Positions 14,974-58,081 of a stretch of DNA of 64,000 nucleotides are shown here, one piece after another. Source of the stretch: Candidatus Omnitrophota bacterium (GTDB lineage: Bacteria > Omnitrophota > Gorgyraeia > Gygaellales > Profunditerraquicolaceae). The stretch's first letter is position 1. The number at the start of each line of letters is the position of its first letter. The stretch spans positions 96,366-160,365 of the forward strand of contig JBDRAV010000003.1 in the NCBI GenBank assembly GCA_043823435.1, in the 5' to 3' direction. The notes under the pieces are model-generated. The model had not been told where the DNA came from, made no database searches, and saw nothing but the letters and a program-made list of their open reading frames with translations. Made by a program: the position numbers and the translations under genes.

Positions 14974-16737
14974 TCACCTCTTTATTATTTTTTTAAGTTC
15001 TTCCTTCACCGGCACGCCATGCGAACTGAATATCTCCCGGTTATCCAGCAGATACGCCGGCCCCAACATAATTTGCAATTCCTCACTCAGCGCAATATTC
15101 TCCCTTAGAAGCCTATTCCCTTCTTCTCCGCGCGCGCAAATACTTATCTTATCCGTATCTGCTTCACCTAAGCAATCCTGCCACCATGAACTATTAATAG
15201 AATTCACCCGGCAGCTGATATAATTCCAAAACTCCTGAGGGTAATATTTCTGGACACAGACGCTGCGCAGGCATTCCTCTACTTCAAGGTTCCCTCCCTT
15301 TGCCTCAAACTTTCCCCCGGCCTTTTCGACAACTAAGAAATGCACAATAGGGTTGAATTCTCTTATCGTATTCAATAATGCCCGGGCATCCTTATGGTAT
15401 AAACTCATAAATAAATCCAGCCTTCCCTTAACGGGCTTTCTATCCAGATAATAAGCAATGCCGCTAAAACTGGGATTTAACATATAAAAATCACCCTTTG
15501 CCTGCAGGTTATTCTTTAATTTTCCAAACCCACCCCCTTCTTCCGCTTCTTTCCCCAGAAGATAAACCGGCAGGACATCGATACCCAAATCTTTGATTAA
15601 TCTGTCGGCTTCTTTCCCTGGATAATATAGGTAAGATACTGATAATCCAGGAAAGTATGTCTTCAAAAGGCTCTCCTTATCTTTAGTATAACATGTACTG
15701 CAAAGTTTAGAGGTAATGATCGAGAGGGGGACCTTGACTGCTTTAGTGAATACGCACCGTGCCTGCAATATACCGGGGGAGTCACATCTTCCTACCGACC
15801 CCTCCTGTTTGCAATTATTATCGGAGAAACAGCGCGGTAAAATAGACAGTATATCCGGATCATCGGATATCTTATCTGAAAGACGCAACTCTTCTACCCT
15901 GTAATTCGCTACTTTATTATCATTCAAATCCATGGTTAATTTCCCGATGCCGCGTCCCTGCCAGGAAGGCCTTAATATCAAAACGGCGCCTTCTTTGCTA
16001 AAAATATCTTTCTTTGTGCGGCTATGGCCTACAATAAGGATACCTATCCCCTCGACTTCCTTCAATAAACTTAAATCCTCACTCTCGCCCAGATGGCTTA
16101 TGAGTATAATAAGGTCTACTCTATTCTTTTTTAATTCTGATACTGCCTCTTTAACCGCTGTTTTCGGATCAATAAACCGCATGCCGCTTGCTCCGGCCTT
16201 CTGCTCTGCCAGAGAATTAGTCAAGCCGATTATACCTATCTTCCTGCCGGCGGATTCTTTTATAATATATGGCTTGAGCAAAGGAACCCCCGCCCCTTCT
16301 GCACAGATATTAGAAGAAAGAAAAGCTATCCGCGTCTTCCCGACATTATCCTGGAGGAACTCCATGCCGAAGTTAAATTCATCATCTCCGACTGTAGCGG
16401 CATCATACTTCATTAATTCCATTGCCTCAAGATTTACGATGGAGCGTTGCATATCCAGTTCTGTATTCTGGGTATATTCATCCTGAAGCCCGCCGGCAAA
16501 GAATCCGCCTGAATCTAACAATAAGAGGTCAGGGCTATCCTTTCTTAACTCTTTGATCAAGGTAGCGCGCCGCGCTATCCCGCCGTCCGACTGGTAATGG
16601 CAATTGCAAGGATAAAGCATTGCGTGCGTCTCGCCGGTATATAGTATGGTAATCTCCTGGGCGCTTATATCACTAGAGAACAGAAAACAGAAAACAAAGA
16701 GTGCTAGGGAGAATATAGATAAACTTTTTCTTGTCAT
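14974..16737 (-). CDS. secreted 5'-nucleotidase/metallophosphoesterase-like domain fused to Cys-rich and thioredoxin/DsbA-like C-terminal regions
   Basis: 587 aa. Signal peptide, then a UshA-like N-terminal half with altered metal motifs. Next comes a four-Cys cluster, a CSTC (CxxC) motif and a second Trx-like segment. Confidence 0.6.
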   Translation of the reverse strand: MTRKSLSIFSLALFVFCFLFSSDISAQEITILYTGETHAMLYPCNCHYQSDGGIARRATLIKELRKDSPDLLLLDSGGFFAGGLQDEYTQNTELDMQRSIVNLEAMELMKYDAATVGDDEFNFGMEFLQDNVGKTRIAFLSSNICAEGAGVPLLKPYIIKESAGRKIGIIGLTNSLAEQKAGASGMRFIDPKTAVKEAVSELKKNRVDLIILISHLGESEDLSLLKEVEGIGILIVGHSRTKKDIFSKEGAVLILRPSWQGRGIGKLTMDLNDNKVANYRVEELRLSDKISDDPDILSILPRCFSDNNCKQEGSVGRCDSPGILQARCVFTKAVKVPLSIITSKLCSTCYTKDKESLLKTYFPGLSVSYLYYPGKEADRLIKDLGIDVLPVYLLGKEAEEGGGFGKLKNNLQAKGDFYMLNPSFSGIAYYLDRKPVKGRLDLFMSLYHKDARALLNTIREFNPIVHFLVVEKAGGKFEAKGGNLEVEECLRSVCVQKYYPQEFWNYISCRVNSINSSWWQDCLGEADTDKISICARGEEGNRLLRENIALSEELQIMLGPAYLLDNREIFSSHGVPVKEELKKIIKR

Positions 16738-20381: not shown

Positions 20382-21250
20382 TTTTGCCAGTCCGCTTCTC
20401 TCAATAAAAACTCCATAACCTTACGAGGCATATGGTCGTCTATGGGTATATTTTCCTTCTTGGCAATAGCGGACAGGATCAGATAAACCCTGACCTGTTT
20501 CTTCGCTTCCTGTTCCAGCTGTCCGGTTATCGCTTTCTCCTGCTCTTCTATTTTTTCTCGCGAGACCCCCTTTAAAGCCAGGTCTAATTTAGTCTGCCTG
20601 AGCATATCCTGCAACTGACGGTTGACCAGGCCTTGAGGCAATTTAAAATCCAGACCCTTACTAATATTCTCCACGATCTCCTTCTCTATCTTCTGCCTCT
20701 GCTGGTTCTCTTCGCGTAGGTAAATCTCTTTCTCCACCGCCTTCTCTAATTCAGAAAGCATGGGATAACCTAATGACCTGGAAAAATTATCGTCTACAGT
20801 CTCTATTTTTCTTGTTTCTTTAATGGAATCGATATTGCGCTTTATCATATCCGCGCTAACTTCTATCTTCTTATAATTCACCCTGATACCCTTATAGTTT
20901 TTTATCGGGATCTGTGGGCTTATCTCTACCCTCGCCTTGAATGAAAGACTACCCCTGTCCAGTTTCACTTCGGATACTTCGGGCAGTTCTATAACCTCAA
21001 GGCCCTCCTTATCTATCGCCTGGTTATAAAGCTCGGGGATAAGTTCCTTCATTACCAACTCATGCGCATGAGAGGAATATTTCTTTTCCAGGATATCGCG
21101 TGGGGCATGGCCGGGCCGAAAACCTGGTATCTTGGCCTCTTTCGATATCTGTGCAAAAACATCATTAAATTTATTCTTGACCAGATCGCCGCTTACCTCA
21201 ATACTGATCTCCCTTTTGTTGCTGTCTATCTCTTTGACTTCAGTTTTCAC
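20375..21250 (-). CDS. tig: trigger factor, short form without recognisable PPIase domain
   Basis: 291 aa. N-terminal ribosome-binding signature GFRPGHAP and C-terminal arm-domain-like sequence. GTG start at 21250 preceded by a purine-rich RBS. Confidence 0.85.
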   Translation of the reverse strand: MKTEVKEIDSNKREISIEVSGDLVKNKFNDVFAQISKEAKIPGFRPGHAPRDILEKKYSSHAHELVMKELIPELYNQAIDKEGLEVIELPEVSEVKLDRGSLSFKARVEISPQIPIKNYKGIRVNYKKIEVSADMIKRNIDSIKETRKIETVDDNFSRSLGYPMLSELEKAVEKEIYLREENQQRQKIEKEIVENISKGLDFKLPQGLVNRQLQDMLRQTKLDLALKGVSREKIEEQEKAITGQLEQEAKKQVRVYLILSAIAKKENIPIDDHMPRKVMEFLLREADWQNS

Positions 21251-21303
21251 CCCGCTCTTCCTTTCCTAATTAATACCCCGACCCTTTTGGAAGGACGGGC
21301 CCC
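21247..21303 (-). promoter_or_regulatory. repeated hairpin + RBS + GTG-start leader cassette, copy A (tig)
   Basis: The 20-mer tcaccccgctcttcctttcc (21247-21266) is identical to 24506-24525. Upstream hairpin is CCCGTCCTTCCAAAAGGGTCGGGG (minus-strand sense). Confidence 0.7.
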
Positions 21304-23540: not shown

Positions 23541-24527
23541 TTATGCTAATCCGGCCTTTAATAAATCCTGTACGTCCAAAAGCCCTACGGGCCGGTAATC
23601 TTTATCTACTACCGGCACCTCATCTATCTTTTTTTCCTGGAGCATGCGCATGGCCTCGGCAGCCAATTTGCCCCCGGTAATCACAAGGGGCCTTTTGGTC
23701 ATCACTTCCCTGATCTTCATTTTGGGTAACTCCCTCTTTGTCCCCAGATGCCGTCGTAGATCTCCGTCAGTGAATATCCCGGTTAATCTTCCCTTATTAT
23801 CCACTACCGAGGCGGCTCCGGCGCGCGCCTGGGTAATTTTCAGCAGGACATCTGAAACTGTCCTTTCCTCATTGACCACGGGATTATCCCTGCCCTTACG
23901 CATGATATCCTCTACTTTTAAAAGCAGCTGTTTGCCCAGCATACCTCCCGGATGGTAAAAAGCGAAATCCTTCGCCTTAAACCCTTTCAGTTCCAGAAGG
24001 CATACTGCCAGGGCATCTGCCATGGCTAAAGTAGCGGTAGTAGAAGCGGTAGGGGCGAGCCCCAAAGGACAGGCCTCTTTTCTTACGGAAACGTCCAATA
24101 CTATATCACTGTATTTAGCGAGAACAGATCTAGTCTTTCCGGTCAACGCGATGATCTTTGCCCCTATCTTCTTTAAGAAAGGAAGTAGCTGTTTTATCTC
24201 TTCGGTCGACCCGCTGTTAGAAATAATGATCACTGTATCGTCAGAAGTCACCCTTCCCAGGTCTCCATGGGCGGCTTCGGATAAATGCATGAATAAGCTT
24301 GGCGTACCGGTAGAAGAAAGGGTCGCGGAGAGTTTCTCGGCGATGATACCGGTTTTACCCATACCGCTTACCACTATCCTACCTTTAGTCTTTAATACGG
24401 TAACGACGGCTTCCTTAAAACTGTTACCCAGGCGTGATTTCAGCGCCCTTACCGCCTCTGACTCAATATCCAGGACCTCTTTCGCGCGTCTAAGAATATT
24501 TATTCTCACCCCGCTCTTCCTTTCCAT
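23541..24527 (-). CDS. kdsD: arabinose-5-phosphate isomerase (SIS + tandem CBS)
   Basis: 328 aa. SIS domain (VVSGMGKTG) and C-terminal CBS pair. The start is ambiguous: ATG 24527, or GTG 24509 by analogy with the repeated leader cassette. Confidence 0.9.
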   Translation of the reverse strand: MERKSGVRINILRRAKEVLDIESEAVRALKSRLGNSFKEAVVTVLKTKGRIVVSGMGKTGIIAEKLSATLSSTGTPSLFMHLSEAAHGDLGRVTSDDTVIIISNSGSTEEIKQLLPFLKKIGAKIIALTGKTRSVLAKYSDIVLDVSVRKEACPLGLAPTASTTATLAMADALAVCLLELKGFKAKDFAFYHPGGMLGKQLLLKVEDIMRKGRDNPVVNEERTVSDVLLKITQARAGAASVVDNKGRLTGIFTDGDLRRHLGTKRELPKMKIREVMTKRPLVITGGKLAAEAMRMLQEKKIDEVPVVDKDYRPVGLLDVQDLLKAGLA

Positions 24528-24557
24528 GCATACCCCTGCCCTACAGAAGGGCGGGGC
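24506..24557 (-). promoter_or_regulatory. leader cassette, copy B (kdsA-kdsD junction)
   Basis: Carries the same 20-mer as copy A. The hairpin CCCCGCCCTTCTGTAGGGCAGGGG starts right after the kdsA stop codon. Confidence 0.7.
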
Positions 24558-25370
24558 TCATAATGCCTTCTCTATTTTCTTAACCTGTTTTAAGAGCCTG
24601 CGCAATTCTTTTAGATCGATCATATTCGGACCGTCGCAGGGCGCTTCATCAGGCGCAGAGTGCACTTCTAAAAACAGTCCGTCGCAACCAAAGGCGACAG
24701 CTGCACGTGAGAGGCCAGCCACAAACTCCCGCTGCCCCCCGGATGAAGAGCCTTTCCCTCCCGGCAGCTGGATGCTGTGCGTAGCGTCATAAATCACCGG
24801 GTAGCCGAACTCGCGCATAATAGCGAGGCTACGCAAATCAGAAACAAGGTTATTATAACCAAAAGAAGCCCCCCGCTCGGTGATCAAAATAGACTTATTC
24901 CCTGTTGACTCTATCTTCTTAATTATAGGCAATACATCCCATGGAGCCAGAAACTGCCCCTTCTTGATATTTATCACCTTGCCTGTCCTGGCGACAGCCA
25001 GTACTATATCCGTCTGGCGGCACAAGAATGCCGGGATCTGCATTACGTCCAGGACCCGCGATGCTTCGGGGATATCATTTTTGCAATGTATGTCGCTTAA
25101 TATGGGGACCCTTAGACGATCTTTTACTTTCTGCAGGATCTCTAAGCCTTTCTTCATCCCGGGACCGCGATAAGAATCTATAGAGAGCCTATTTGCCTTA
25201 TCAAAGCTGGACTTGAAAATAAAAGGGATCCCCGATTCTGCGGCAATATCTTTTATCTTCTTTGCCGTATCAAGGCATTGCCTTTCGGACTCGATCACGC
25301 ATGGACCCGCTACCAGGACCAACGGGTTCCTGCCGCCTATTTTTATCTTTCCTACATTAATCTGGCGCAT
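24558..25370 (-). CDS. kdsA: 2-dehydro-3-deoxyphosphooctonate aldolase (KDO8P synthase)
   Basis: 270 aa. KdsA family (GPCVIES, KSSFDKANR). Confidence 0.95.
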   Translation of the reverse strand: MRQINVGKIKIGGRNPLVLVAGPCVIESERQCLDTAKKIKDIAAESGIPFIFKSSFDKANRLSIDSYRGPGMKKGLEILQKVKDRLRVPILSDIHCKNDIPEASRVLDVMQIPAFLCRQTDIVLAVARTGKVINIKKGQFLAPWDVLPIIKKIESTGNKSILITERGASFGYNNLVSDLRSLAIMREFGYPVIYDATHSIQLPGGKGSSSGGQREFVAGLSRAAVAFGCDGLFLEVHSAPDEAPCDGPNMIDLKELRRLLKQVKKIEKAL

Positions 25371-26113: not shown

Positions 26114-27127
26114 TTATTTTATCCTTTCTAATAACTCTTTTCTGTCGGTAACTGCCGTGCCTAATTTACCGACCACAATGCCGGCAGAGAAGTTAGCGAT
26201 ATGCGCGGCCTCAAGCTTTGAAGCCCCGCAGCAAAGCGCCAGGGTAAAACTGGATATTACCGTATCACCGGCGCCTGAGACATCAAATACCTCCTGCGCT
26301 ACCGTCGGTATATGCGTCAGACGTCCGCCCTTCTCAAATAAACGCATCCCGTGTTCGCCTAAAGTCACAAGCAGCGATTCCAACCCCAGGTATTTTAAAA
26401 TCTCTCTTGCCGCCGAGTCTATATCCTTATCGGTAAATAATTTATCCGTATTGAACTTAAAAGCGTTAGAAATATCCTTGATGCGCAGATTCCTTATCGC
26501 GTTCTCCAGTTCTCTGCGGTTAGGGGTGATGGAAGTAACGCCCCGGTAATACTGAAAATGCTCCTCCTTGGGGTCTACGGATATTATCTTCCTGCGGGCG
26601 CGCGAAAGCGCGATAATCTCTTCCAATAAATGCATATTTATCACGCCCTTACCGTAATCTTCGATGATAATGGCATCAAAGCCATCGATATTATTTTTTA
26701 CGAACCCGACGATCCGCTTATTAAGTTTTTGCGTAAGGGGATGGGTGTGCTCCCAATCCACCCTGACTACCTGCTGGTGCCCGGCGATAATGCGCGTCTT
26801 AACCGTGGTATGCCGGCGGTTTTCGCTAAATATCCCCGAAGTGTTTATCTTTTTCTTCTTCAGTTCCGATAATAAAAGGGCAGCGTTTTTGTCCTTTCCG
26901 ATAACGCCGGCCAGGCATACGCCTGCCCCGAACGAACGGATATTGCTGGCCACATTAGCCGCGCCCCCAGGGACGAAGGTATGGGTGTCCGCCCATACTA
27001 CCGGTACGGGCGCCTCGGGTGATATCCTGTCTACGCTGCCGCCTATATATTCATCCAGGATTACATCCCCCAGCACGAGTATTTTAGCCTTAGCGAATCT
27101 ATTGATTATCTTCTCAAGGTTCTTCAC
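26114..27127 (-). CDS. hldE: D-glycero-beta-D-manno-heptose-7-phosphate kinase (RfaE/HldE domain I only)
   Basis: 337 aa. PfkB-type sugar kinase with an HldE-like N-terminus (ILVLGDVILDEY) and GAGDT motif. No adenylyltransferase domain. GTG start. Confidence 0.85.
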   Translation of the reverse strand: MKNLEKIINRFAKAKILVLGDVILDEYIGGSVDRISPEAPVPVVWADTHTFVPGGAANVASNIRSFGAGVCLAGVIGKDKNAALLLSELKKKKINTSGIFSENRRHTTVKTRIIAGHQQVVRVDWEHTHPLTQKLNKRIVGFVKNNIDGFDAIIIEDYGKGVINMHLLEEIIALSRARRKIISVDPKEEHFQYYRGVTSITPNRRELENAIRNLRIKDISNAFKFNTDKLFTDKDIDSAAREILKYLGLESLLVTLGEHGMRLFEKGGRLTHIPTVAQEVFDVSGAGDTVISSFTLALCCGASKLEAAHIANFSAGIVVGKLGTAVTDRKELLERIK

Positions 27128-27193
27128 CCCACCCTTCCTCTCCTAATTGTATGCCCCAACCCTTTTGGAAGAGCGGGGTTCACCCCACTCTCC
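27124..27193 (-). promoter_or_regulatory. leader cassette, copy C (hldE), with an extra partial 3'-arm copy
   Basis: tcaccccacccttcctctcc (27124-27143) matches the A/B 20-mer at 17 of 20 positions. ccccgctcttcc (minus-strand sense, 27178-27167) is the exact complement of the A/B RBS segment. A duplicate GGAGAGTGGGGTG lies at 27193-27181. Confidence 0.65.
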
Positions 27194-27208
27194 TTTATTA
27201 TCTTAACT

Positions 27209-27229
27209 CCGGCCCTCAGGAAGGGCCGG
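27209..27229 (-). other. GC-rich hairpin directly after the DHS-like gene stop (terminator-like, no U-run)
   Basis: ccggccc (27209-27215) and gggccgg (27223-27229) form a perfect 7-bp stem with a 7-nt loop. Confidence 0.5.
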
Positions 27230-27231
27230 GT

Positions 27232-28161
27232 TCATATCTTTTCAATTATCGCCTGCGCCAGTAATGGAAGCATTATTTCATGGTGGCCGATGATATAGTG
27301 GCCGCTGCCAGCTCCCTGAACAGGACGTGATACCACGTTCTGCATCGGGCGGTAATGATAGATCATATCAAAGTTTGCGCTAGTAAAATTCTTCACCTTA
27401 TACCCCAGGTTCCTCGACAGGTTCAATGCCTTTAAGAATACCTCCGGCAATATCACTGCTGAGCCGAAATTAAGGACTACCCCGCCGTCATTAAGTCCGC
27501 GGATATTTTCCACGAGTAAATGAAAGTCCCTGAAAGACCCCTCTGCGGCCATGGCAGCGTCGAAAGAAGGATGCTGGTGTATAATATCCGTTCCGATAGC
27601 AACATACACGCAAAGCGGAACTTTATTTTTATAGGCATTATAAAGTAGGCTTAAATTTTTATAACGCAGTCTTGAACCGTTTATCTTTTCTGCCACGGCA
27701 TAACCCAATCCCAGGCCAGAAGATACCCCCTCCTTGACGGCACTGTTGAGGAAATCCGCGGTCTCATGCGCCATCCCGAATTTACCGTCCCTTAACCCCT
27801 CGCCTACGTCTTCGGAAGTTTCACCGTTAAATGCAATCTCAAAATCGTGGATAATGCCAGCGCCGTTTAACGCAACGCAAGTAATGACCTTCTTCTTTAT
27901 CAACTCAATAACTATGGGATTAAGGCCACACTTTATCACATGCGCCCCGGCCATAAAAATAACTGCTCTCTTCTTCCTGCGGGCCCTTACCACCGCGTCA
28001 ACTATGGCGCGTATCTCCTTTACTTTTAATATATTAGGCAAAGAGGCGTAATAAGTAGAAAAGCTCCTTCCTTGAGCCGGTATCTTGGCAAAATCAGCGA
28101 GATTTACCTTGCTTCGCCTTTTCTTTATTGAATATGTCTTTATCTTCTTTATATTTATCAT
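27232..28161 (-). CDS. deoxyhypusine-synthase-like family protein, function unknown
   Basis: 309 aa. AGAHVIKCGLNPIVIELIKKKVITCVALNGAGIIHDFE resembles the DHS-fold core by eye. The assignment is tentative. Confidence 0.5.
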   Translation of the reverse strand: MINIKKIKTYSIKKRRSKVNLADFAKIPAQGRSFSTYYASLPNILKVKEIRAIVDAVVRARRKKRAVIFMAGAHVIKCGLNPIVIELIKKKVITCVALNGAGIIHDFEIAFNGETSEDVGEGLRDGKFGMAHETADFLNSAVKEGVSSGLGLGYAVAEKINGSRLRYKNLSLLYNAYKNKVPLCVYVAIGTDIIHQHPSFDAAMAAEGSFRDFHLLVENIRGLNDGGVVLNFGSAVILPEVFLKALNLSRNLGYKVKNFTSANFDMIYHYRPMQNVVSRPVQGAGSGHYIIGHHEIMLPLLAQAIIEKI

Positions 28162-30254: not shown

Positions 30255-30334
30255 GCACCGTCTGCCAATTCAATCTCGTACCCGGTGCGAGATTAGAAAC
30301 AAAGCAGGTACCCGATTACCTCGGCACCAGGTAC
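30255..30334. repeat. degenerate 23-nt-periodic array, 4 units, related to GCACCWGGTGC
   Basis: Unit starts at 30255, 30278, 30301 and 30324. Cores read gcaccgtctgc / gtacccggtgc / aaagcaggtac / gcaccaggtac. The 12-mer caatctcgtacc is shared with 57554-57565. Confidence 0.6.
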
Positions 30335-30338
30335 TATC

Positions 30339-31367
30339 TTATAGACTCTTAACTTTTTCTAATACCTCATCGGGCGTGATCGCCTTCATACAGCGGTTGT
30401 CTTTGCAATTAACCACGTAGCAAGGTATCTTGCAGCCAACGTCTTTGGATAAAATAGTCGTGTTCTTTAAAGGGTACGGCCCGGTTATTAGCGGGGAAGT
30501 CGGACCGAATAAAGCGATAATCTTTTTGGCGCCTACGGCGTTAGCAATATGTAGTGGCCCAGTATCCGCGGTGATGAATAAATCCAGCCTCTTGCACAGA
30601 GCACCTAACTGCTTAAGGTTAAAGACGCCGCTGGCTATGATGGGCTTTGCCTTCATCATATCTTTTATCTTATGGGCGAGGGAGATATCGGCATAACCTC
30701 CCGTAATGATGACCTTTGCACCTAATTCTGATATCAATCTATCCGCCAATATAGCCCAGTAATCTTGTGGCCAGCGCTTGGGCATCCAGTTTCCTCCGGG
30801 GTTTATCCCCACCAGGAGATCATCCTTAGTCACTGACTTTCTGTTCAAAAAATCATTCACGAAGTTTACGTCCACATCTTCTATGAAGAACTCCAAATAC
30901 CTGTCTTCTGCTTTTAAGCCTGCCTTCTCAATAATATTCAGGTAATAATCTATGCGGTGCAGGGCGTCCCTGTCAACCGGTTTAAGCGAACCGGTGAGAA
31001 GAAAACCGCGCTTTTTGGTGCGGTAACCGATCCTCTCGGTGATACCCGCGAGGCGGCAGATGAGCGCCCGCGTAAGTGAACCGTGTAATAAAAATACGGA
31101 ATCAAACTTCCTCCTCTTGAGGAACCTTATAAACTCAATCTTACTCATGATGCCCCTGTGACGCTCCCTTTCATCAAAGATAATTATCTCGTCTAAATAA
31201 GGACTACCTTTCAGGACAGGGTAGCATCGCCCGGGTAAGGCGCAGGCGATAAAGCTGTCCGGGTAATTACGCCGGATATTCCTGATTACGGCGGTAGAAA
31301 ATAAGACATCCCCCAGCCAGTTGACGTTAAAAATAAGTATCTTCTTCCTGTGCCGCTTCTCTTTCAT
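30339..31367 (-). CDS. glycosyltransferase family 9 (heptosyltransferase-like)
   Basis: 342 aa. ILIFNVNWLGDVLFST and TADTGPLHIA motifs. Confidence 0.85.
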   Translation of the reverse strand: MKEKRHRKKILIFNVNWLGDVLFSTAVIRNIRRNYPDSFIACALPGRCYPVLKGSPYLDEIIIFDERERHRGIMSKIEFIRFLKRRKFDSVFLLHGSLTRALICRLAGITERIGYRTKKRGFLLTGSLKPVDRDALHRIDYYLNIIEKAGLKAEDRYLEFFIEDVDVNFVNDFLNRKSVTKDDLLVGINPGGNWMPKRWPQDYWAILADRLISELGAKVIITGGYADISLAHKIKDMMKAKPIIASGVFNLKQLGALCKRLDLFITADTGPLHIANAVGAKKIIALFGPTSPLITGPYPLKNTTILSKDVGCKIPCYVVNCKDNRCMKAITPDEVLEKVKSL

Positions 31368-38741: not shown

Positions 38742-39722
38742 TTACGTTTTTCTTTGAGACGCCCCTTGCCTATTCTTCAACCCCTTGTCCAGAACCCTTC
38801 TATTCACCATGAAATTACTCCCGGGAAGGCCTTTGAGATATTTTTTCAGTTCTGCAGTAGTATCCATCAGTTCAAAAAGATTCAGGGTCTGGCCCAAAGG
38901 GTTATTCACTATGGCAACGGATAAACTCATCAGCGGCATATCCATGACCTTACCGCTCCTGTCGCTGCTCCTGATAAAACCGCTCTTGCGGTCCTCTTCT
39001 GAATAGCGACCGGGGGCCATAGCGTCAAACTCCCTGATGACATCTTTGGCAATGGGCTCGGCTTTATCGGGAGTGGTGATGAGCACAAAATCATCCCCTC
39101 CTATATGGCCGACAAAATCCTGTTTGTTGCCTATACTCTTGGCGTTCCTGGATATAATCCTGGATGTCTCTAAAATCACTTCATCACCCCGAAGATACCC
39201 GTATTTATCATTATAGGTTTTGAAGTTGTCTATATCCATGTAATGGAATGAAAAATGATCTCCGGAATCAATCCTCTCAATAAGCTCCCTCTGGATAAGT
39301 TTATTCCCGGGCAGGCGCGTCAGGGCGTTTGCGTTAAAGTGGTGCGCGGCGCTGCGTAAGGCCAGTACTATCCTTATCTCCAGGTCTATCGGGTCCGGCG
39401 GTTTGATCAGGTAATCATCCACTCCCTGCTCTATGCTGAGAAGATCCCGCCTTAATTGCCTCTTATCTATCAGGACGATGGTAGGTATATAGGATGTAAG
39501 AAAATCGTTCTTTATCTCCCTGCATATCCGCAGCCCGTTCTTACCCTCGATAGCCGCGTCTATGATAATCAGGCTGGGATTTTCCTTCTTTAATAATTCT
39601 ATTACGTCCTGGCCCTCTTCCAGCACCAGCACCTGGTACTCCCAGGCCTTTAAAAGATAAAGGAGTATCTCGCGTAACTTCGGATCCGGTACTGCCAGGA
39701 CTATTTTGATCTCCTGCGCCAT
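38742..39722 (-). CDS. response-regulator receiver + GGDEF-like domain protein (motif GGDDF)
   Basis: 326 aa. REC domain (IIIDAAIEG, phospho-Asp context) and a GGDEF-type fold (DIDNFKTYND ... HIGGDDFVL). Confidence 0.85.
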   Translation of the reverse strand: MAQEIKIVLAVPDPKLREILLYLLKAWEYQVLVLEEGQDVIELLKKENPSLIIIDAAIEGKNGLRICREIKNDFLTSYIPTIVLIDKRQLRRDLLSIEQGVDDYLIKPPDPIDLEIRIVLALRSAAHHFNANALTRLPGNKLIQRELIERIDSGDHFSFHYMDIDNFKTYNDKYGYLRGDEVILETSRIISRNAKSIGNKQDFVGHIGGDDFVLITTPDKAEPIAKDVIREFDAMAPGRYSEEDRKSGFIRSSDRSGKVMDMPLMSLSVAIVNNPLGQTLNLFELMDTTAELKKYLKGLPGSNFMVNRRVLDKGLKNRQGASQRKT

Positions 39723-48294: not shown

Positions 48295-48310
48295 ATCTAC
48301 CTCCAATTTT

Positions 48311-48367
48311 GCACCTGGTGCCAGATTAACTTTGCACCAGGTGCAAAGTTAAGATTGTACCTGTCCC
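48311..48367. repeat. 23-nt-periodic array, 3 units, core GCACCWGGTGC
   Basis: Unit starts at 48311, 48334 and 48357. Cores read gcacctggtgc / gcaccaggtgc / gtacctgtccc. Unit 2 is the centre of a 25-nt perfect palindrome at 48327-48351. Confidence 0.85.
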
Positions 48368-48369
48368 CT

Positions 48370-48933
48370 TTATCTCCAAAGCCCTCTTTTATTCTCCCGT
48401 GCCTCACGGTATAGCTTTAAAAATAAATCCGCGTATTTTACGTTAGGCGGAAAAGTCATCACCGACGCATACCCCTGCCTGATGATCTCCGCGTTCACGA
48501 AAGTATTATCCTTCTTTAAATATACGTAAGCCAAAAGCCGCTTATATTGGTCGTACTTCTCCACGTCAAATTCTAAACTTGCATGCTGGCCTTCTGCCAA
48601 ATTTCTCGTAAATTCATAAGCGCGCCTGCCTAACTCCTGAATAGCGCTAATTCTGCGTCCTGTCCTCTGACTATCCCGGTATAATTTATCTGACTCATGC
48701 ATCTCAGGCGTATCTATGCCGATAAGCCGCACCCTCTCCCCGGACTCAAGTTCTATGGTATCTCCGTCGATCACGCGCCTGATGAGGATATCAGTATAGT
48801 TATAGGTCTTACCGAAGGGTAATTTAAATTTCCAATCTTCGGTATTATAGATCACAACCGGCTCATCTGCTATAACCCGGCAAGCAAACCCTAAAGAGAG
48901 CGCTATAAGCAATAAGATAATGCGCTTTTTCAT
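48370..48933 (-). CDS. secreted thermonuclease (staphylococcal nuclease, SNase fold)
   Basis: 187 aa. Signal peptide and SNase-like motifs (VIDGDTIEL...VRLIGIDTPE). Confidence 0.8.
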   Translation of the reverse strand: MKKRIILLLIALSLGFACRVIADEPVVIYNTEDWKFKLPFGKTYNYTDILIRRVIDGDTIELESGERVRLIGIDTPEMHESDKLYRDSQRTGRRISAIQELGRRAYEFTRNLAEGQHASLEFDVEKYDQYKRLLAYVYLKKDNTFVNAEIIRQGYASVMTFPPNVKYADLFLKLYREARENKRGLWR

Positions 48934-57044: not shown

Positions 57045-57524
57045 TTATCTTGTGCTTTTACGCTGCGGTTTCTCCTTATTTAATATATCCTTTAATTCCA
57101 CCATGAACTGGCCGACATCCTTGAACTGCCTGTACACCGAGGCGAACCTCACATAAGCAACGTCATCCAGCACCTTTAACTTCTCCATCACCAACTCCCC
57201 GATGCGGGAGGCCTGGACCTCACGGTCGGATTTCTTCTGGATGGCGCGCTCTATCTGCACAAGCATATCCTCCATCTTCTCCATGCTGATCGGCCTCTTT
57301 TCGCAGGCCCGGATAATACCGGAGAGTATCTTCTTGCGGTCAAATGGCTCGCGCCGATTATCCTTCTTTATCACCAGGAGGGATACCTCCTCTATATATT
57401 CATACGTGGTAAAGCGCTTGCCGCACTTTAAGCATTCGCGCCTCCTCCTGATCGCCGATTCCTCGGCGGTCCCGCGCGAATCCACTACCTTATCCTCTTT
57501 ATAACCGCAGTAAGGGCACTTCAT
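57045..57524 (-). CDS. nrdR: transcriptional repressor NrdR
   Basis: MKCPYCG zinc ribbon plus ATP-cone. ATG 57524 is preferred. The ORF-track extension to 57587 runs through the repeat array. Confidence 0.9.
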
Positions 57525-57537
57525 CAGTTTTAATATT

Positions 57538-57617
57538 GCACCTGGTGCGAAACCAATCTCGTACCTGTCCTGTTTTTGTGCTGGCACCTGGTGCGCGATT
57601 GCATTTGCACCTGGTGC
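57538..57617. repeat. 23-nt-periodic array, 4 units, core GCACCTGGTGC
   Basis: Unit starts at 57538, 57561, 57584 and 57607. Cores read gcacctggtgc / gtacctgtcct / gcacctggtgc / gcacctggtgc. Confidence 0.85.
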
Positions 57618-58081
57618 TATTTTATTCTTCTTACCTTTATCTTCGCTTCCTTTAAGAATTCCTGCGCTAATTTATCCGGATAGTATCCTACGGTGACTAT
57701 CTCTTTAACGCCGCCGTTAATGAGCATCTTGGCGCAGATAATACAGGGCTGATTGGTAATGTAAAGAACGCTCTCTTTCGTGCTTACCCCGTGGAGCGCC
57801 GCCTGAAGCAATACATTCTGCTCCGCGTGCAGGCCGCGGCAGAGCTCATGGCGCTCTCCGGAGGGAATCTTCATCTTTTCTCTCAGGCAGCCGATATCAA
57901 TGCAGTGCCTGATACCCGAAGGCGCTCCGTTATAACCTGTAGCTAATATCTTCTTCTCCTTTACCAGGACAGCGCCTACCTTGCGCCGAAGGCAGGTCGC
58001 CCTCTTAGAGACTAAAAAAGCTACCTCTAAGAAATATTCATCCCAGCTTGGGCGTTTATAAGCATTCTGCTTCTTTTTCAT
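57617..58081 (-). CDS. comEB: dCMP deaminase (ComEB-type)
   Basis: 154 aa. HAEQN and PCIICAK zinc motifs. Confidence 0.9.

Follow-up and report, generated by a model that had tools for sequence, protein, structure and literature searches.

Several families of small bacterial repeats are found at or near the starts of genes, and MIRUs, the interspersed repetitive units of mycobacteria, are the closest to the element considered here. As Supply et al. (1997) are summarized in PMC12548453, MIRUs are 40–100 bp long and seem to be mobile, with insertion at start codons; they lie within operons and share the orientation of the genes. The same summary describes an internal small open reading frame (ORF) coupled to the downstream gene through a −4 nt overlap, while an earlier review, PMC3184786, notes tetranucleotide direct repeats, imperfect terminal inverted repeats (TIRs), GC-rich internal repeats, and filled and empty sites. 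In Neisseria, REP2 is described as carrying a promoter, a ribosome-binding site (RBS), and an ATG and as linked to a co-regulated gene set (PMC3184786). REP/REPIN sequences, in the outline given by PMC3733652, have a GTAG or CGTC head and a 20–40-nt palindrome, are mobilized by RAYT proteins, and make no target duplication. Here, we analyzed the leader of an hldE-type gene in a 64,000-nt stretch of DNA from Candidatus Omnitrophota bacterium (assembly GCA_043823435.1, contig JBDRAV010000003.1, positions 96,366 to 160,365), hereafter called the window, in whose numbering positions are given. The hldE leader very probably consists of two diverged copies of an approximately 50-nt non-autonomous mobile repeat, inserted successively into the TGAA of an ancestral ATGA gene overlap. 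The repeat resembles MITEs (miniature inverted-repeat transposable elements) in its anatomy and MIRUs in its behavior. Its family is large, MIRU-like, and apparently undescribed; we came across no account of repeats like these in Omnitrophota when searching the literature.

The hldE leader and the repeat in the window

On the minus strand of the window, a GSU2086-family gene is followed by the hldE-type gene, whose leader had been read in a first-pass annotation as an attenuator-like set of three mutually complementary segments. The parts of this junction, in the direction of transcription, are as follows.

28161-27232, minus: GSU2086-family gene upstream of hldE, stop TGA at 27234-27232
27203-27235, minus: relic ORF from the ancestral ATG (MNPALPEGRS, then stop), overlapping the upstream stop (ATGA) and terminating within copy A
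27231-27234, minus: 5' flanking TGAA, which holds the TGA with which the GSU2086-family gene ends and shares bases with the relic ATG of the ancestral hldE start (27235-27233)
27183-27230, minus: element copy A, 48 nt (nhmmer E = 1.3e-9; profile from metagenome copies alone, E = 7.6e-5)
27124-27183, minus: bridge upstream ORF, GTG plus 18 codons plus TGA (VNPALPKGLGHTIRRGRVG, then stop), beginning at the copy-A GTG and spanning copy B
27179-27182, minus: TGAA between copies A and B, which with the last G of copy A forms GTG 27183-27181
27127-27178, minus: element copy B, 52 nt (nhmmer E = 7e-9; metagenome-only profile, 1.6e-6)
27123-27126, minus: 3' flanking TGAA, target-site duplication, whose TG completes the hldE start GTG 27127-27125 begun by the final G of copy B
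26114-27127, minus: hldE-type gene, D-glycero-beta-D-manno-heptose-7-phosphate kinase, rfaE domain I only (TIGR02198, 370 bits)

The hldE product has 337 aa and is 100% identical to a protein from a Candidatus Omnitrophota metagenome-assembled genome (MAG), with hundreds of relatives on record; from its GTG onwards, its N-terminus matches that of ATG-started orthologues residue for residue in the alignment.

Searches with nhmmer found four copies of the repeat in the window (tig, kdsD, hldE-A, and hldE-B), all on the minus strand and 48–52 nt long, and a profile built from 62 metagenome copies alone recovers all four with E-values from 4.5e-9 to 7.6e-5. Each is bounded by TIRs with the consensus CCCCGCCCTTCC ... 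GGAAGAGCGGGG (arms CCCCGC(C/T)CTTCC and GGAAG(A/G)G(C/T)GGGG) and contains an internal third arm able to form a hairpin with the 5' arm, an AT-rich linker, and a purine-rich Shine-Dalgarno (SD) sequence (GAAAGGAAG or GGAGGAAG) just inside the 3' arm, 7–9 nt ahead of the created GTG. That start codon arises from the terminal G of the element and the duplicated TG, and the duplication also preserves the second codon. This is why tig, kdsD, and hldE share the start ...GGAAG(A/G)G(C/T)GGGGTGA. Copy A runs from its 5' arm, CCCGGCCCTTCC, through an internal arm, an AT-rich linker, and an SD-like AAAGGAGAG (27196-27188) to its 3' arm, and copy B has the internal arm GGGTTGGGG and the SD GGAGAGGAAG (27143-27134) between its two terminal arms.

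The segments of the first-pass annotation can be placed on this anatomy. The perfect 7-bp CCGGCCC/GGGCCGG hairpin at 27229-27209, which it had located after the upstream stop and which RNAfold extends to 12 pairs, is formed by the 5' and internal arms of copy A. Segment 1, GGAGAGTGGGGTG (27193-27181), the 2 nt that follow (AA), and segment 2, CCCCGCTCTTCC (27178-27167), lie exactly where it had put them. Segment 3, GGAAGGGTGGGGTG, does contain the RBS and end in the hldE GTG, but it occupies 27138-27125 rather than 27140-27127, a shift of 2 nt, and the loop between segments 2 and 3, which includes AAAAGGGTTGGGG, is therefore 28 nt long and not 26. Copy A contributes its 3' inverted repeat as segment 1, and copy B its 5' and 3' inverted repeats as segments 2 and 3. 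Segment 1 does derive from the cassette, as had been supposed, not as a partial duplication of one arm but as the 3' end of a complete second copy (27230-27183). The mutual complementarity of the three segments results from tandem insertion and not from the evolution of a switch. At tig and kdsD, where the earlier reading saw no additional upstream segment, none is present. These two copies are located as follows.

24505-24560, minus: kdsD copy with its flanks (element 24556-24509; TGAG on both sides, 24560-24557 and 24508-24505; nhmmer)
21246-21299, minus: tig copy (element 21299-21250, then TGAA), degenerate 5' arm, start GTG 21250-21248 (nhmmer)

The kdsD junction reads TTATGAG, 48 nt, TGAGAAT, with the kdsA stop inside the 5' TGAG and a new start GTG at 24509-24507. 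An in-frame ATG (24527-24525) lies inside this copy, 18 nt upstream of GTG 24509, and the mechanical ORF call begins there; the kdsD start is ambiguous between this ATG and the element-made GTG, of which the GTG has the SD. Most copies also have a TATAAT-like box right after the internal hairpin (e.g., GGGGTATAGAT or GGGGTTATAAAT), with no −35 element evident; in the window, these are TACAAT at 27149-27154 (copy B), GATAAT at 27204-27209 (copy A), and TATTAAT at 21268-21274 (tig copy).

Filled and empty sites in relatives

The GSU2086-family/hldE junction was examined in ten contigs from relatives. Seven of the ten (L001/L189, L002, L003, and L190-L193; hldE 84–85% identical) have no spacer and a 4-nt ATGA gene overlap, the empty site reading ATATGAAGAA in the context ...GAAAAAATATGAAGAAT.... 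The window reads ...GAAAAGATATGAA, 48 nt, TGAA, 52 nt, TGAAGAAC... at the same place, so that the insert at the ancestral ATGA overlap amounts to 104 nt and comprises two units bounded by CCC(C/G)G...(T/C)GGGG, each followed by TGAA. A single canonical copy of 49 nt lies between TGAA flanks in L139, and L004 and L194 have one longer relative of the element, approximately 100 nt, bounded by CCCCGCACCTTC...GAAGGTGCGGGG and flanked by TGAA at either side. The kdsA/kdsD junction is likewise empty in relatives (TTATGAAGATG). The reverse was also observed: in the window, rpiB, glyA, and the gene for dCMP deaminase each start at an empty ATGAA, and the element is present there in metagenome orthologues. 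Of the 120 metagenome contigs listed, 16 have genes in common with the window, the amino-acid identity reaching 87%. Each genome has a subfamily of the element with its own TIR sequence.

A sister family of 97–122 nt, with the ends CCCCGCACCTTCT/AGAAGGTGCGGGG, was noticed at the hldE and kdsD junctions of another lineage (L004 3904-4000 and 6857-6978; L194 1104-1200). At kdsD of L004, the gene call starts at an ATG within the sister element, which gives the protein an element-derived N-terminal extension; the 3' flank there is TAAG, and no GTG is therefore formed.

Copies of the repeat in metagenomes

A scan of metagenomes yielded at least 120 contigs (L069-L188) with at least 121 non-identical copies, and the counts given here are among the matches listed. 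The two flanking tetranucleotides are identical in 93 of 121 copies, most often as TGAA (74), followed by TGAG (9), TAAA (4), and TTAA (2). Where the 5' flank is something other than TGAA (41 copies), the same tetranucleotide stands at the 3' side in 19, and this co-variation identifies a genuine 4-bp target-site duplication with the consensus TNAR. At −5, immediately before the 5' flank, 94 of the 121 copies have A and 20 have G, a base that belongs to the old ATG or GTG start. A GTG is created from the last G and the duplicated TG in 99/121 copies, and a long ORF begins exactly at this codon in 88/121, compared with 11/242 for two control frames. In 44/121, a long upstream ORF stops inside the 5' flank, which is the mark of a former ATGA overlap. 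Relative to the non-palindromic duplication, 93 copies are in the sense and 2 in the antisense orientation. Copy length ranges from 44 to 68 nt, with a mode of 49.

Of the first 83 of at least 125 elements found, 70 fit the pattern on both strands. Grouped by similarity, the 88 downstream proteins form 67 groups; judged by their N-termini, the genes resemble infA, queC, rpiB, pheT, murI, panC, leuD, ligA, trpS, trpA, argJ, cysS, glyA, kdsD, and hldE, among others. The family has no regulon, and the genes downstream are a mixture of housekeeping genes. Copies separated by the same 4-nt spacer also form tandem arrays, with three or more identical copies ahead of trpS in L114 and four or more in L137, and a neighboring copy lies 4 nt away for 5 of the 121. 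When genome contigs were scanned with the strict pattern, one true copy was recovered, in another Omnitrophota MAG (L068), where it precedes a MKISIIGAGNVG-type (malate/lactate dehydrogenase-like) gene as AAATGAA, element, TGAAAAT. A second strict-pattern match, inside a Chitinophagaceae gene, was put down to chance. A short 3'-arm pattern gave 62 matches on viral contigs, roughly the number estimated for chance, and these were set aside.

Folding of the leader and alternative explanations

The leader might instead be a dedicated cis-acting switch for hldE (an attenuator, riboswitch, or thermosensor), in which some signal moves segment 2 between segment 1, leaving the RBS free, and segment 3, burying it. 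The topology on which this explanation is built is real. Segment 2 is able to pair with segment 1 or with segment 3, in a mutually exclusive manner, the SD and GTG of hldE lie under the predicted 2:3 helix, and the leader folds far more stably than its shuffles (z = −4.6 to −4.8; 0/200 shuffles as stable). However, the two states are far from balanced. The isolated 1:2 hairpin (11 bp, UGAA loop) is predicted at −19.7 kcal/mol, while the 2:3 helix reaches −25.0 kcal/mol alone and −27.2 within the leader, and the 91-nt leader as a whole reaches −31.7 kcal/mol with an extension that pairs part of segment 1 to the start of the coding region. The ensemble probability of the central pair is 0.986 for 2:3 and 0.014 for 1:2. 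As 2:3 is favored over 1:2 at 20, 30, 37, 45, and 55 °C alike, by 4–9 kcal/mol, a thermosensor was rejected. So was a kinetic trap, since refolding from the 1:2 state into the minimum requires crossing only 7.9 kcal/mol along the best path. Transcription attenuation was ruled out by the lack of a U-tract 3' of either hairpin on the sense strand (1:2 is followed by AAAAGGG and 2:3 by UGAAGAACC). No sense-strand intrinsic terminator was found at the hldE leader, and Rfam returned no match at gathering thresholds in the whole window or at E ≤ 1 in 27050-27300. Moreover, the orthologous junction carries zero, one, or two copies in relatives, and the same element stands ahead of at least 67 unrelated gene families, so it is not hldE-specific. 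The first-pass annotation had called for just such a comparison of fold energies and had counted a single, overwhelmingly favored conformation against its own reading; with one fold prevailing in every condition tried, the predicted folding does not support its 1:2/2:3 switch. A dedicated switch is already close to refuted, and we regard it as very improbable. The three segments with exclusive 1:2 and 2:3 pairings do recall attenuators and riboswitch platforms, but the hldE leader lacks a U-tract terminator, near-isoenergetic folds, and a sensor domain, and it is not conserved at the orthologous site. As there is no hldE-specific attenuator, regulation of lipopolysaccharide heptose should not be inferred from this leader.

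That the pattern is a product of chance or assembly, i.e., accidental SD-like complementarity or a mis-assembled repeat, has a negligible probability in our judgment. The source is indeed a metagenome-assembled genome. However, shuffled sequences do not fold as well, copies A and B differ from each other, which makes a collapse or duplication unlikely, and the same architecture recurs in a further MAG and on over 120 independent metagenome contigs. A more serious competitor, although still an improbable one, is that the cassettes are not mobile DNA but a host-selected RNA module at operon junctions, which could combine a hairpin for RNase III/E processing or stabilization with a strong translation initiation region and would have spread by gene conversion or recombination and been kept for its function. 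This would fit the strict sense placement on start codons, the SD and start codon that the element carries, and a C.A mismatch that is conserved in the long TIR helix on the sense strand (45/56 copies; on the antisense strand, the same position is a G.U pair). It would also fit the tig gene of the relative L189, whose leader (15790-15820) retains only the element's 3' arm, SD, and GTG (GAAAGGAAGAGCGGGGTGAA), and the failure to find a transposase in a search for arm pairs in the loci that we fetched. Against a host module stand the flanks that co-vary (TGAG/TGAG, TAAA/TAAA, and TTAA/TTAA) and the old ATG retained upstream, which are signatures of insertion, together with the many presence/absence polymorphisms between close relatives, the tandem arrays, and the subfamily and TIR sequence peculiar to each genome.

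Several observations nevertheless weigh against successive insertions of a mobile repeat. Arm pairs 0.4–4 kb apart with matching flanks in the fetched loci were searched for a transposase or an autonomous element with the same ends; none was found, and the long-range pairs proved to be separate neighboring copies. Family membership, target-site duplications, empty sites, start-codon placement, orientation, and predicted fold energies were obtained directly, while mobility, with no parent element found, is deduced only from the duplications and the filled and empty sites. The near-absolute orientation bias is unlike a symmetric cut-and-paste transposase with a 4-bp duplication. TGAR sites in the window are in similar supply outside genes and at their starts (37 non-coding vs 27 start-codon), and a symmetric DDE mechanism does not account for the start-codon preference and the single orientation; flipping the element has a modest effect on how accessible the SD is predicted to be (0.44 before, 0.30 after). 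The orientation bias and the subterminal hairpin led us to consider a possible IS200/IS605- or REP-like (HUH) origin, which is not favored, given that the 4-nt flanks co-vary on both sides. The listed copies are not independent, as some are orthologous insertions, and they were picked by a pattern that needs both arms. The tig copy of the window has no 5' duplication, and the tig leader of L189 keeps only the 3' part, as described above; the window tig leader (21310-21246) has 41 nt more, which correspond to the 5' arm and the internal hairpin, and L189 itself has no hldE or kdsD copy. This suggests that the tig copy is an old insertion, partly deleted or domesticated, with the useful half kept in L189. 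Finally, the translational coupling that we propose below is wholly our inference from models, and the full bridge ORF on which it depends is present in only 19/56 copies. With these points taken into account, two successive insertions remain our preferred account of the hldE leader.

Comparison with described repeats

By description, the nearest known counterpart is the MIRU, in the sense that the Omnitrophota element may work like one and not that it belongs to that family. The two have in common their size class, a location in operons in the direction of the genes, insertion at start codons, 4-nt repeats, TIRs, GC-rich internal inverted repeats, and tandem arrays. However, the Omnitrophota family belongs to another phylum, where sequence homology to MIRUs would not be expected, and the likeness is one of described properties. 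Its elements have strong 12-nt TIRs, supply an SD, and convert the start to GTG, and only about one-third of the copies have a full bridge ORF. The features that place it beside MIRUs are the gene-start location in operons, the gene orientation, and the tandem arrays of variable number, and those that it shares with MITEs are its short length without a transposase gene, its TIRs, its target-site duplication, and its filled and empty sites.

MITEs such as Correia/NEMIS, Nezha, RUP, and ERIC are also small elements with TIRs, target-site duplications, and filled and empty sites, and they too form long RNA hairpins and are co-transcribed with neighboring genes (PMC3184786). They are intergenic, found in both orientations, and typically use TA or similar targets, whereas the Omnitrophota copies sit on start codons, are oriented 93:2, and target TNAR. 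Neisseria REP2 and the similar upstream repeats of Borrelia are dispersed, lie directly upstream of many genes, provide an RBS and a start codon, and contain internal stem-loops (PMC3184786); the family described here differs from REP2 in its lack of a regulon, its GTG rather than ATG start, and its clear 4-nt duplications. REP/REPIN sequences were ruled out, as the copies run from CCCC to GGGG, lack a GTAG or CGTC head, and are flanked by 4-nt duplications.

The family explains why several genes of one genome share an identical SD-spacer-GTG start. It may also show that operon junctions with a 4-nt overlap can take insertions without loss of expression. As a second, phylogenetically remote case of MIRU-like start-codon repeats, with clean TIRs and duplications, it makes start-codon finding and one-way insertion testable. 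Such elements may also be the source of GTG starts, small “leader peptides,” and N-terminal extensions in Omnitrophota MAGs, which matters for annotation.

Translational coupling

The predicted folds raise the question of how a gene is translated after such an insertion. The terminal-repeat helix is predicted to prevail in the ensemble of 82% of canonical single copies, where it covers the start region, and copy B behaves likewise, with a predicted TIR helix probability of 1.00. In the naked RNA, the copy-B helix would sequester the SD and GTG of hldE, and hldE translation would therefore probably depend on ribosomes arriving from upstream. Because the 5' arm starts directly after the upstream stop or the old ATG, the helix would be kept open by a ribosome that terminates or initiates at this point. 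At hldE, a ribosome ending at TGA 27234, or one starting at the relic ATG and translating its 10-codon ORF into copy A, would melt the first hairpin. The SD of copy A (predicted unpaired, P = 0.98) and GTG 27183, also predicted to be accessible, could then start the 19-codon bridge ORF through copy B, whose translation would unwind the 2:3 helix and stop on the hldE start, which the bridge stop overlaps as GTGA, allowing re-initiation. We infer from this model that the element re-creates translational coupling rather than abolishing it.

Among the TGAR-flanked copies, 19 of 56 have a full bridge ORF, from the old start to a TGA overlapping the new GTG, and so does the hldE copy of L139. Copy length plus 4 equals 2 modulo 3 in 29/56 (18.7 expected; z ~2.9, for copies that are not independent), and all 19 full bridge ORFs fall among these 29 in-phase copies. 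An SD and start held in a helix under the control of an upstream ribosome, and a 4-nt stop/start overlap, are both known from sequestering-hairpin coupling and from ATGA/GTGA re-initiation (PMC12548453, PMC6728339); the hldE device would differ from these systems in coming ready-made from a mobile element. Taken further, the family might be a portable module for translation initiation and coupling, transposed to start codons by an orientation-specific mechanism, with the tandem hldE leader acting as a relay of bridge ORFs and competing helices. We offer this wider proposal tentatively and consider it, as a whole, rather unlikely. If it were true, the element could spread into ATGA junctions in a genome that is 95% coding and yet not silence genes, hldE output would depend on upstream translation, and an uncultured phylum would have a general, undescribed counterpart of MIRUs, possibly with a new insertion mechanism.

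Other repeats

Other repeats were noticed in the window and in its relatives. The palindrome GCACC(A/T)GGTGC occurs seven times in the window at ≤1 mismatch, with 0.49 occurrences expected. Its positions are 30255-30341, 48303-48371, 57512-57628, and 39629-39639, the clusters being phased at 23 nt, and one cluster lies directly upstream of the start of a heptosyltransferase gene (30248, minus). From the sequence, these clusters look like arrayed protein-binding sites or a second repeat family. The spacer between hldE and kdsB is 4 nt in the window (26113-26110) and approximately 115 nt and rich in inverted repeats in L190 (2215-2329) and L004 (5021-5133). These spacers of relatives are unrelated in sequence to the hldE-leader family, and it seems that other small repeats colonize operon junctions of the same clade too. 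Two more inverted repeats, CCTTGACAT...ATGTCAAGG, were found at the kdsA 3' end of L004 (6690-6850), where the protein has 278 aa compared with 270–271 elsewhere; this gain in length may represent an in-frame repeat insertion.

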